Assembly: GCF_022402485.1 (NCBI RefSeq)
Contig: NZ_JAKRSA010000015.1
Span: 49,270 to 113,269 of the forward strand
DNA: 64,000 bases
Direction of reading: 5' to 3'
Source: Phenylobacterium sp.
Lineage (GTDB): Bacteria; Pseudomonadota; Alphaproteobacteria; Caulobacterales; Caulobacteraceae
The position numbers were made by a program, and so were the translations under genes. The notes beneath the pieces were generated by a model. That model had not been told where the DNA came from. It saw nothing but the letters and a program-made list of their open reading frames with translations, and did not search any database. Below, in pieces: positions 14,918 through 17,921 of this stretch (positions are counted from its first letter, which is position 1; every line of letters begins with the position of its first letter).

Positions 14918-14994
14918 TGGTCGGAGTGGCAGGATTCGAACCTGCGACCCCCGCGTCCCGAACGCGGTGCTCTACCAGACTGAGCCACACTCCG
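14918..14994 (-). tRNA. tRNA-Pro (CGG)
   Basis: CGGAGTG acceptor stem, anticodon arm CCGCG-TTCGGGA-CGCGG, GGTTCGAATCC T-arm, encoded CCA; 77 nt. Confidence 0.97.
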
Positions 14995-15123: not shown

Positions 15124-15197
15124 TGGGGAATGGTGTAATGGTAACACAGCGGTTTTTGGTACCGTCATTCTAGGTTCGAGTCCTAGTTCCCCAGCCA
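15124..15197 (+). tRNA. tRNA-Gln (TTG), integration target
   Basis: TGGGGAA...; anticodon arm GCGGT-TTTTGGT-ACCGT; GGTTCGAGTCC; ends CCA; 74 nt. Confidence 0.97.
15148..15197 (+). repeat. attL core, 50-bp direct repeat (3' part of tRNA-Gln)
   Basis: AGCGGTTTTTGGTACCGTCATTCTAGGTTCGAGTCCTAGTTCCCCAGCCA, identical to 17668-17717. Confidence 0.95.
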
Positions 15198-15492
15198 GTT
15201 TTTTCCTTCAAAATCAAAATCTTGAGCCGATCTTGGTCGCTCCTAAATTTCCTCTTGGATGTAGGATGCATTCCTACGTCCTGTAAACGGGACCGGCTTA
15301 AGCTCTTACTTTGCGGGAAGCATGGCTGCACCCGAATGACGGCGTGGCTGCCAGCAGTCGAGGCCCAAGCGGGGGCTAACCTGTTTGAGTTTGCCGGGCG
15401 GCCTGAGCCCTTGCCTGAAGTCGCGAGCATGTGGATCACGCAATTATAGCGACGCTCTTCGTGTTGCAACTGTTCCGCGAATTGCGCACACT

Positions 15493-15680
15493 TCGCAGGC
15501 CTCTTAGCTGGGTGAAACACCGGACTTGCGAGGTGTCACTCTATGCCGGGCGCGTAGCCAGGCTGAATTCGATTGCGCGGGATTGGGCGCCGACTTCGGA
15601 ATCCGGAGCCGGTCCCGGCCTGCGTCTCGGCACCGGCTCCGGATTCCGAAGTCGGCCGCTTTAAGTAAGAGGATCTGTGG
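15493..15680 (+). ncRNA. Retron msr-msd ncRNA
   Basis: a1 CCTCTTA (15500-06) followed by G15507 in an AGC context; a2 TAAGAGG (15666-72); pairing extends 7 more bp with one bulge and G-U pairs; small msr hairpins (GGTG-aaa-CACC; CTATGC/GCGTAG); 25-bp perfect msd stem 15589-613/15632-656. Confidence 0.85.
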
Positions 15681-16595
15681 TTGGATCACCCGCTGATTGA
15701 GGAAGCAAATAGTAACCTCCGCAAGCGGGTGATCCAGCTTCTCCAAATGGGCTACAGCGTAGCTCGGGGTGGAAACATTGTCTTTGTGTGTGGCGGAAAT
15801 GAAGTTCACCACATGAGGACCAGATTCCGACAGTATTGTGCAGCTCATCTTAGCGAATTCGAGATATTTTTCCCTGAATTCGCAATGAAAGACTATTTTT
15901 CTTCATCCATTCCGGAGCCATTCGATATTGCTGACTTTGAGTATATTGTTGGCGAGTTATCGCATGCCATCGTTATATTCCCAGAGGCGCCTGGTTCATT
16001 TGCGGAGACTGGATATTTTTCTGCCATAGATAAATTGTCAGAAAAGACAATTCTAGCCCTAGACGCTCCAAGACAAGAATTCGATAGTTTTATTTCAATG
16101 GGTCCAGCGAAAAAGATCGCTGCAAAGTCTATCTTCCAACCGAATGTGCAGATGGATTACCAAGAGCCGACATTTGAATTAGTCGCATCGAGAATTAGGC
16201 GTCTGTCAGTCGCGAAAAATAGAAAACTTCTGAAAGTTGAAAGGTTTAATGATCTTACCGCCTTTGAACTATTTGCCCTCATACATCGTATTGTGACAAT
16301 TCTGTCAATCGCAACGATTGACGATATCATATATATAATGAGAGGCATTTTTAAATCCATAGTATCCGTTTCGAAAATTCGGCATATGGCTTCAATTCTT
16401 GTGGGATGCGAATACATAAAATCAATTGGAAAATATGGACACTATTATGCAAGAAAAGACAAATCTACTCTTTTAGAGGTCAGAAGCGGATTTGTAAATC
16501 AAGAGACAGACATAAGAATTCTTTTGGCCGGCATATATGAAGTTGGAGATTCCGAGTTTATCGAAATCATAGAGGCGTCGATGAATGCTGATTGA
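15681..16595 (+). CDS. Retron effector (St85/Ec86-like: NDT-like N-terminal domain plus C-terminal wHTH-like region)
   Basis: IVFVCGG, IFFPE, AIVIFPEAPGSFAETGYF (E-x-x-GS-x-x-E-x-G-x-F), DSFISMGP; 304 aa; TTG start right after a2; 11-nt overlap with the RT. Confidence 0.85.
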   Translation: MDHPLIEEANSNLRKRVIQLLQMGYSVARGGNIVFVCGGNEVHHMRTRFRQYCAAHLSEFEIFFPEFAMKDYFSSSIPEPFDIADFEYIVGELSHAIVIFPEAPGSFAETGYFSAIDKLSEKTILALDAPRQEFDSFISMGPAKKIAAKSIFQPNVQMDYQEPTFELVASRIRRLSVAKNRKLLKVERFNDLTAFELFALIHRIVTILSIATIDDIIYIMRGIFKSIVSVSKIRHMASILVGCEYIKSIGKYGHYYARKDKSTLLEVRSGFVNQETDIRILLAGIYEVGDSEFIEIIEASMNAD

Positions 16596-17529
16596 TCGAT
16601 TGTGCAAGCAGACAGGCCTAACGCGCGCGCAGATTGACCGGTATGCGGAAACTGCGTCCAATCGATATAAGACTTATTCAATTTTGAAGCGCAATGGTAA
16701 TGAACGAATTATTTCTCAGCCCAGTCGAGAAATTAAAGCCTTGCAGCGATGGTTGGTGAGGGTGCTTTTTCAGCATTTTCCAGTTCACCAGTCTGCGACC
16801 GCTTATGCGAAGGGGTCTAGTATTCGAATTAATGCGGAGCGTCACGTCGACTCAAACTATACGCTTAGAGTGGACTTTCAGGACTTTTTTAGCTCATTCC
16901 GTTCTGAAGATGTTGGCAGATTTTTGAGTGTATCAAACCAAAAATTGAATTTTGATATTAGATTAGAAGATATTTCGATCATCACAAAAATTGTTTCACG
17001 GCATGGCAGGTTAACTGTTGGGGCGCCATCATCGCCGATGCTAACAAATATAATGATGTACGACTTTGATTATCATTTGAATAAATGGGCGTGCGAGCGC
17101 GATGTCGTGTATACAAGATACGCAGATGACATTTTTCTTTCGGCAATGAAAGGAGAGCACTTAAATGGAGCGATGGGGTCTATATCAAGTTTTGCGAGTG
17201 ATTTTGTATTAGCTGATATAAAAATAAATAGTCAAAAGACGGTCTTTCTTTCCAGAAAGGCGCGTAGATCTATTACAGGTTTAGTAATTACAACTGATAG
17301 AGATGTATCTATAGGTAGAGATCGGAAACGTAAGATAAAATCATTAATATATTTACAGAAAATGGGAATATTAGAGAATTCAAAACTATCATACTTGCGA
17401 GGGATGTTGTCTTTTATTTCTGATGTAGAACCTGAATTCTATGAGACCTTGTCGCGTAAGTTTGGCGATTCATTTGTTTCGGCGATTATGAATGGAGCAG
17501 AGACTGGTGTCGAGGACGCTCTGTTCTGA
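16585..17529 (+). CDS. Retron reverse transcriptase
   Basis: RIISQPSREIKALQRW, region X NAERH, VDFQDFFSS, LTVGAPSSPMLTN, YTRYADDIFLS, region Y SITGLVI, SIGRDRKR; 314 aa; no extra domain. Confidence 0.96.
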   Translation: MLIDRLCKQTGLTRAQIDRYAETASNRYKTYSILKRNGNERIISQPSREIKALQRWLVRVLFQHFPVHQSATAYAKGSSIRINAERHVDSNYTLRVDFQDFFSSFRSEDVGRFLSVSNQKLNFDIRLEDISIITKIVSRHGRLTVGAPSSPMLTNIMMYDFDYHLNKWACERDVVYTRYADDIFLSAMKGEHLNGAMGSISSFASDFVLADIKINSQKTVFLSRKARRSITGLVITTDRDVSIGRDRKRKIKSLIYLQKMGILENSKLSYLRGMLSFISDVEPEFYETLSRKFGDSFVSAIMNGAETGVEDALF

Positions 17530-17667
17530 CGGTTCTTTGACAAAGATAAATCGGAATGCGCCCGGATTGTCCAATGTACGCTTGGGCTTTCCGACTAAGT
17601 TTCTGATCTTATTGGCGAAGTTAGAAGTGCAATTTTCAGTTAGTGTATTGAACTAGCTATAGCATCT

Positions 17668-17717
17668 AGCGGTTTTTGGTACCGTCATTCTAGGTTCGAG
17701 TCCTAGTTCCCCAGCCA
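17668..17717 (+). repeat. attR core, duplicated 3' 50 nt of tRNA-Gln
   Basis: Exact copy of 15148-15197; lacks the 5' acceptor/D arm, so not a functional tRNA. Confidence 0.95.
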
Positions 17718-17921
17718 ACGAATTCAATCAATTAGTGCCATATCAACCCCCCTGCGCCAGGGCGCGGATAGGGCGTCCGGACGGGTCCTGCACCGGCTTT
17801 CCGGGTGATGCCCCGTGGAACTGCGGCGATGGCCTTCAACCCCCTGGCCCTGGTTCTGGACTTCGGTCGTCACCACATCGGCTTTGATGTTCTACGGGCG
17901 GTTTCAGAGGGCGGTCTTCCC

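Follow-up and report, generated by a model that had tools for sequence, protein, structure and literature searches.

In a 64,000-nt stretch of a Phenylobacterium sp. genome (contig NZ_JAKRSA010000015.1, positions 49,270 to 113,269; hereafter the window), we found a 2520-bp islet at the gene for tRNA-Gln(UUG) whose sole cargo is a retron. The islet is bracketed by a perfect repeat of the 3′ part of the tRNA gene and contains no recombinase. It is probably, though far from certainly, the remnant of a recently integrated element, similar to a cis-mobilizable element (CIME), that was reduced to its retron by one internal deletion. The source genome is a metagenome-assembled genome (MAG) from a freshwater metagenome and comprises 3.08 Mb in 33 contigs. 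Positions are those of the window, and features lie on its forward (+) strand unless stated otherwise.

The intact tRNA-Gln(UUG) gene occupies 15124–15197 (ARAGORN, anticodon ttg; Rfam 62.4 bits) and is the only full copy in its genome. A repeat search showed that its 3′ 50 nt form the left attachment site (attL, 15148–15197) of a direct repeat, the second copy of which, a displaced tRNA 3′ part, constitutes the right attachment site (attR, 17668–17717) at a start-to-start spacing of 2520 nt. As an earlier note on this DNA had described, the two copies are 100% identical, begin just before the anticodon stem and enclose 2470 bp of AT-rich DNA, for which we measured 43.9% GC, compared with 65.8% for the window. 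The repeat spans tRNA positions 25–74 and starts one base ahead of the 5′ arm of the anticodon stem; its attL copy is made up of that arm (6 nt) and of 44 nt that reach from the anticodon loop as far as the end of the tRNA. Across the 33 contigs the 50-nt sequence occurs in these two copies only. An exact repeat of this length within 2.5 kb cannot be due to chance.

Tyrosine integrases duplicate the block of tRNA genes that extends from the anticodon loop to the 3′ end, and the anticodon loop as a sublocation of tyrosine-integrase attachment (att) sites in tRNA genes was reportedly described by Williams in 2002. Here the block of identity extends to the last base of the tRNA, and attL holds a regenerated, intact tRNA gene. 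A 44–49-nt part of the repeat is common to integrase-bearing relatives, whose own tRNA-Gln repeats begin at tRNA position 26, 28 or 31. GC content differs among the parts of the islet: 40–41% in the open reading frames, 62% in the promoter and non-coding RNA (ncRNA), 54% in the left end and 41% in the right end. We do not take the low GC content to prove a low-GC donor, since values of 40–52% are also seen for homologous retrons of other hosts with 68% GC.

The islet consists of one complete type II-A (Sen2/St85-like) retron and ~404 bp of non-coding ends. The earlier note had counted two open reading frames, an ncRNA and ~430 bp of non-coding ends, and had read the whole as an integrase-type insertion that carries a retron and lacks a recombinase; our measurements bear this out, with matches to RT_II-A and NDT_II-A and nothing else coding. 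Small open reading frames in the ends had no Pfam match (E up to 1), and a tblastn search of the islet with the integrase of a relative, G015, found no recombinase remnant.

We aligned the region upstream of the retron genes in the window with five homologous retron loci. In this alignment of six sequences, homology to other retrons of the same clade starts at the −35 box of the promoter, at 15464. The promoter was placed by alignment at 15464–15492, with −35 TTGCAA at 15464–15469, a 17-nt spacer and −10 CACACT at 15487–15492. It is followed by the msr–msd ncRNA (15500–15672), in which a1 lies at 15500–15506, a putative branching G at 15507 in an AGC context, the arms of the msd hairpin at 15589–15617 and 15628–15656, and a2 at 15666–15672. 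The consensus structure from RNAalifold (61 pairs, of which 15 show compensatory changes) comprises the a1/a2 pairing, the msr stem-loops and the long msd hairpin; conservation extends past a2 to the TTG start codon of the effector. A first a1/a2 candidate (15303–15317 with 15657–15672) was dropped, because retron homology begins at 15464 and the conserved a1 is at 15500–15506. That pairing, of 9 + 4 bp, falls outside the conserved retron unit and probably arose by chance.

The effector (15681–16595, 304 aa) belongs to the NDT-like/RcaT (STM3845) family, and its TTG start is conserved in homologues, which carry PF28093 (STM3845). It matched the PADLOC profile NDT_II-A (3.3e-48, positions 4–261 of 279). 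The retron reverse transcriptase (RT; 16585–17529, 314 aa) matched PADLOC RT_II-A (3.1e-105, positions 2–302 of 304) and Pfam RVT_1 (4.8e-18), and its catalytic YADD motif is encoded at ~17113–17124. The resulting gene order is ncRNA–effector–RT. Named homologues of the RT are annotated 'retron St85 family', the closest RT being only 65% identical, and the surroundings of the nearest homologous retrons contain no tRNA, no repeats and no integrase. The promoter and ncRNA (15464–15680) share ~90% identity with their counterparts in the closest homologous retron (L053:912-1100); because the RT proteins share 65%, the retron RNA appears to be under far stronger constraint than the proteins. Retrons of this kind are tripartite toxin–antitoxin systems, in which a complex of RT and multicopy single-stranded DNA (msDNA) neutralizes an NDT/RcaT-like toxin and which abort phage infection, as reported for Retron-Sen2. 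The present retron is predicted to produce msDNA and to defend against phages through release of its toxin.

Comparison of the locus with close relatives, which the earlier note had suggested, revealed both precise empty sites and alternative cargo. We compared the contigs of four runs at this locus and added further contigs through the 90%-identity cluster members of both flanking proteins. One contig, assembled from another lake metagenome, lacks exactly 2520 nt, and the 50 nt at the gap fit either side. In two contigs with flanks 97.8% and 97.3% identical to ours (L071 and L072), tRNA-Gln is followed directly by the sequence found 3′ of attR here, and in the congeneric genome G002 the downstream flank likewise comes directly after tRNA-Gln. 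These precise empty sites, in same-species contigs and in G002, mean that the retron islet was gained within the species. The earlier note had read the unmutated repeat as a sign of recent arrival or continued recombination. Recency itself stands, given the empty sites in the same species; the repeat on its own is only a loose clock, because 50 neutral bases would by our estimate stay unmutated with P ~0.5 over the divergence of these strains.

Other strains hold different DNA at the same position. A contig with 99.1% flank identity (L067) has 1730 bp with an MFS_3 transporter gene at tRNA-Gln (L067:3437-5166), in which no second repeat copy was detectable. The MFS_3 gene encodes 451 aa on the minus strand, the same segment is found in L068 and L074, and at its left end it is similar to the kdp islands described below. 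In two contigs that are 91–93.5% identical to ours (L070 and L073), a 590-aa tyrosine recombinase of the DUF6538 type comes right after tRNA-Gln and is transcribed away from it. Its genes (L070:6366-8138 and L073:2317-4089) represent a second, unrelated family on the same tRNA.

The 107 bp that follow attR (17718–17824) carry a trace of older events. In its first 18–20 nt this segment matches the kdp and MFS islands of relatives at their left end. The segment is also present in same-species strains that lack the retron, and in another strain it is replaced by the 1730 bp with the MFS_3 gene. Given the match to the ends of those islands, the retron islet appears to have entered a site that already bore the scar of an older element.

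Elements with integrases, and their decayed derivatives, occupy this tRNA in further relatives. The tRNA-Gln gene of G015 is directly adjoined by the gene for a 374-aa tyrosine integrase; a separate contig of G015 carries, beside a muramidase gene, 44 nt that repeat the tRNA end without mismatch. Related integrases are encoded by the tRNA-Gln islands of G150 (39.6 kb, 49-nt repeat) and G382 (38.8 kb, 44-nt repeat). An 8.8-kb kdpFABCDE operon whose GC content is host-like separates tRNA-Gln from a decayed repeat copy in G010 (2 mismatches in 44) and in G012 (7 mismatches in 44). G012 also retains a 75-aa C-terminal stump of an integrase (~L031:1606-1830), which is 55% identical to the G015 integrase (E = 1e-21), and the flank after the decayed copy of G010 is the flank at the empty site of G002. 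The tRNA-Gln site is a hot spot for integrases at which a series of decay stages can be seen. The kdp islands span L030:2474-11285 (G010) and L031:1522-10363 (G012), their potassium-uptake operon being complete; kdpA is absent from the genome that contains the window.

The ends of the islet resemble the arms of the attachment sites that such elements carry in their excised form (attP). The right non-coding end (17530–17667, 138 bp) is P-arm-like: in a core-anchored ungapped comparison with the arm of the G015 element, 38 of 94 positions were identical, compared with 23.2 ± 4.2 in shuffles (z = 3.6), and three blocks (17574–17581, 17595–17610 and 17632–17650) are in register with the tRNA-Gln attP arms of Caulobacteraceae. 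A pattern built from the arm architecture identified 15 attR-type sites in public genomes of Brevundimonas, Phenylobacterium and other Caulobacteraceae, and the consensus of this arm family, which is widespread in Caulobacteraceae, comprises two GTTTTACA sites and a CTAAGTCATTGAT block. Because the attR core of the islet, which is neutral, is unmutated, the divergence of its arms from this consensus predates integration, and the parent element would have been a divergent member of the family.

Across the 15 public Caulobacteraceae genomes (L076–L090), the right arm of attP has the order GTTTTACA, CTAAGTCATTGAT, GTTTTACAG and tRNA-Gln core. Near-identical arms are found in five different Brevundimonas genomes, and the cargo of the arm family includes prophage-like elements and integrative and conjugative element (ICE)-like ones, the latter with a type IV secretion system (T4SS) coupling protein. 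The G150 island has, beside attR (L063:984-2944), HEPN (RiboL-PSP) and NsnA/GmrSD_N-like proteins that are likely to form a defence pair. A general defence hot spot beside attR in this family was unsupported: defence genes occur there in G150 only, the corresponding position in other members being taken up by an integrase, a DUF3307 protein, a Cro-like protein or a T4SS coupling protein.

The left non-coding end (15198–15463, ~266 bp) is P′-arm-like. Its first ~25 nt resemble the left arms of the tRNA-Gln elements of relatives. It lacks the tandem GTTTACA arm-type sites that the family has at +48 to +68, and it contains a single inverted GTTTACAGG-like site at 15280–15291. Nothing similar to this end was found in 401 genomes of the host's family. 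The left end also contains a palindrome at 15261–15277, a 6-bp inverted repeat (GTAGGA/TCCTAC) around a 5-nt centre, which may be a candidate protein-binding site of the former attP.

We looked for a cognate integrase, for second copies of the islet and for a parent element. Neither the G015 integrase nor a profile built from three integrase sequences has a match in the genome that contains the window; thus no tyrosine integrase of the arm-matching family turned up there, where the earlier note had proposed to seek one. Its seven PF00589 matches all lie away from the islet, three of them with tRNA-Ala, tRNA-Ser or tRNA-Leu nearby. In the 401 genomes, matches related to the islet were found at the level of the ncRNA only, with no second copy, and exact or degenerate patterns taken from both arms found nothing in Joint Genome Institute (JGI) metagenome contigs or in IMG/VR. 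Within the collections searched, the islet is a singleton. Where arm-family attR sites had enough upstream DNA (~2.5 to 7 kb), none had the tRNA within that distance.

The earlier note had left open whether the islet is a remnant of a larger element or a cassette mobilized in trans. The evidence makes the remnant the likelier of the two. In the history that we propose, a Caulobacteraceae element that targets tRNA-Gln would have integrated by tyrosine-integrase recombination after the split from the empty-site strains, rebuilding the tRNA at attL and displacing the old 3′ part to attR. The retron would have adjoined the right arm of the element. A later internal deletion, with its left breakpoint inside the left arm, would then have eliminated the integrase along with the remaining body of the element, leaving the arms and the type II-A retron. 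The toxin–antitoxin nature of the retron may have favoured its survival as a whole, with phage defence as the selective benefit. We infer the larger parent element, the single deletion, the toxin–antitoxin role and the present immobility of the islet in its host.

Several observations argue for this remnant. The insertion is precise, integrases of relatives use the same site, and the ends are homologous to attP arms. At this tRNA-Gln site, other islands have demonstrably decayed to cargo without an integrase. The left arm has a truncated look, the missing tandem GTTTACA sites being as expected if the deletion cut into it. The islet is a singleton, and no arm-family attR site with enough upstream DNA has the tRNA within the ~2.5 to 7 kb covered. 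We also count in its favour that the host genome has no cognate integrase and that the retron is complete; survival of an intact retron is expected because it would act as a tripartite toxin–antitoxin system, judging from published work on Retron-Sen2.

Other observations weigh against it. We found no parent with this retron or with these exact arms. Neither an integrase nor any other gene has left a trace in the ends, and a deletion would therefore need to have been clean. The non-coding DNA totals 138 + 50 + ~266 bp, approximately a full attP region, as a minimal cassette mobilized in trans would have. The arm-type sites of the right end deviate from the consensus, and the cognate integrase may be divergent and as yet unsampled; the missing left-arm sites could reflect another pattern of sites instead of a deletion. 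Finally, MAGs often miss mobile elements, and the missing helper integrase is weak evidence for this reason.

The strongest alternative, which we consider possible but rather unlikely, is a non-autonomous mini-element, composed of an attP region and the retron, that entered the site as a circle of 2520 bp with the help of an integrase supplied in trans. The helper would have been a co-resident or transient tRNA-Gln prophage or ICE, or else the islet would be what was left when a helper excised from a tandem array; with a helper present, such a mini-element could move again. Both att copies are perfect, as this alternative would have it, the ends and core together form ~450 bp of arm-like non-coding DNA homologous to a real attP family, the ends keep no trace of deleted genes, and elements of the helper type circulate in the genus and the family. 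Tandem accretion and trans-mobilization of CIMEs are, moreover, established for streptococcal ICEs (PMC5704250). Against this alternative, no second copy exists in the collections searched, and the arm-family attR sites, where upstream DNA reached, lack the tRNA within ~2.5 to 7 kb. The absence of the family's tandem arm-type sites from the left end, and of a helper integrase from the host genome, also speaks against it. In a related and still more doubtful form of this idea, the islet is a minimal hitch-hiker, a ~450-bp attP region with one defence system, that is captured and moved by the integrases of Caulobacteraceae tRNA-Gln prophages or ICEs. Were that so, tRNA att sites would serve as an integron-like platform on which cassettes of one defence system each, with no recombinase of their own, are exchanged in trans.

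We regard it as very improbable that the integrated state is an assembly artefact, in which an empty chromosome was joined to a separate 2520-bp circle or to DNA of another organism that shares the 50-nt segment. The source genome is a MAG, and the k=31 graph of the source run breaks at the 50-nt repeat, where the integrated state and an empty site plus circle give identical 31-mers. However, the insert unitig (2530 bp) has a depth of 14.3, compared with 12.8 and 13.1 for the flanks, and the node of the 50-nt repeat has 32.7, about twice as much; a circle that does not replicate would not persist in equal number with the chromosome. Both junctions are spanned by the submitted contig, and an assembler with k above 50, or the reads themselves, can resolve them; the homology of the arms to chromosomal att sites of relatives also fits integration. 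Least credible of all is an origin without site-specific recombination, by insertion through the retron's own RT or a transposase, or by local duplication or gene conversion of the repeat: retrons have historically been suspected of mobility and the homologous ones sit in contexts without tRNA or repeats, yet the repeat is exactly the block from the anticodon loop to the 3′ end that the integrase-bearing elements of relatives also use, the ends are homologous to attP arms, and the islet has neither transposase genes nor terminal inverted repeats.

As a remnant bracketed by att sites, the islet most likely represents a known kind of element and not a new mechanism, CIMEs being known but rarely catalogued. 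CIMEs are elements that lack integration genes and have kept attL and attR (PMC5704250), and here the att repeats flank a unit with no integration, excision or transfer genes inside. With respect to derivation, the right arm is homologous to a family of tRNA-Gln elements and decay is visible at the locus; no parent with this cargo was found. An integrase and excision module of its own, by which integrative and mobilizable elements and phage satellites are recognized, is absent from the islet. The closest parallel is provided by the CIMEs related to ICESt1 and ICESt3 of Streptococcus thermophilus (PMC5704250), which likewise have attL and attR at the 3′ end of a target gene and no integration or transfer genes. 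Like them, the islet would derive from, or depend on, integrase-bearing elements of the same site, with serial integration and decay there. Unlike them, it resides in an alphaproteobacterium, measures only 2.5 kb and has a retron as its sole cargo, and its relatives include prophage-like elements besides the ICE-like one. A survey of 23,213 chromosomes reported zero CIMEs (PMC10201445), which suggests that documented CIMEs carrying defence systems are rare.

Defence islands whose only mobility gene is an integrase occur at tRNA hotspots of E. coli (PMC10121019). The islet shares with them its small size, its defence cargo, its location at a tRNA hotspot and an unclear, perhaps satellite-like, route of mobilization; those islands retain an integrase, whereas the islet has none. 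Among retrons, the nearest model is Retron-Sen2 (St85)/type II-A, with which the islet shares gene order, profile matches, the AGC branching context and the a1/a2 repeats. It differs from known type II-A retrons in that its RT shares no more than 65% identity with any known protein. Its genomic vehicle differs too, Sen2 having been described as inserted directly in the chromosome (PMC11701397). Retron-Eco3 (Ec73) is carried by the P4-like phage phiR73 at the selC tRNA, and retron-Vmi1/Vpa1 by dusA islands with integrases (PMC11701397). In these cases, as in ours, a retron was delivered by site-specific integration at a tRNA-related target and is flanked by attL and attR repeats. They keep their integrases and other genes, whereas the islet is reduced to a retron and att arms.

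The value of the locus lies in its population-level series of alleles and in the identification of its attP family. Within the species and genus the tRNA-Gln site occurs in six states: empty, with the retron islet, with the MFS gene, with kdp and an integrase stump, with elements of ~39 kb or larger that have an integrase next to the tRNA, and with the unrelated DUF6538-integrase island. If the islet is the remnant that we favour, a defence system can outlive its vehicle and still be bracketed by intact att sites, which could let a later helper element recapture the retron. Island finders that rely on integrases overlook such islets, and defence cargo at tRNA sites is for this reason probably under-counted. 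If trans-mobilization should prove true, it would amount to an exchange of defence cassettes that needs no recombinase of their own.

Two further features concern the surroundings of the site. The genome that contains the window encodes a 576-aa DUF6538-type protein near a tRNA-Leu(CAG) gene (L009:1315-3045), which is 25% identical to the one found at tRNA-Gln in the sister strains. On the other side of the tRNA-Gln gene, a tRNA-Pro(CGG) gene on the minus strand (14918–14994; ARAGORN, Rfam tRNA 68.8 bits) is the conserved left neighbour of the site.

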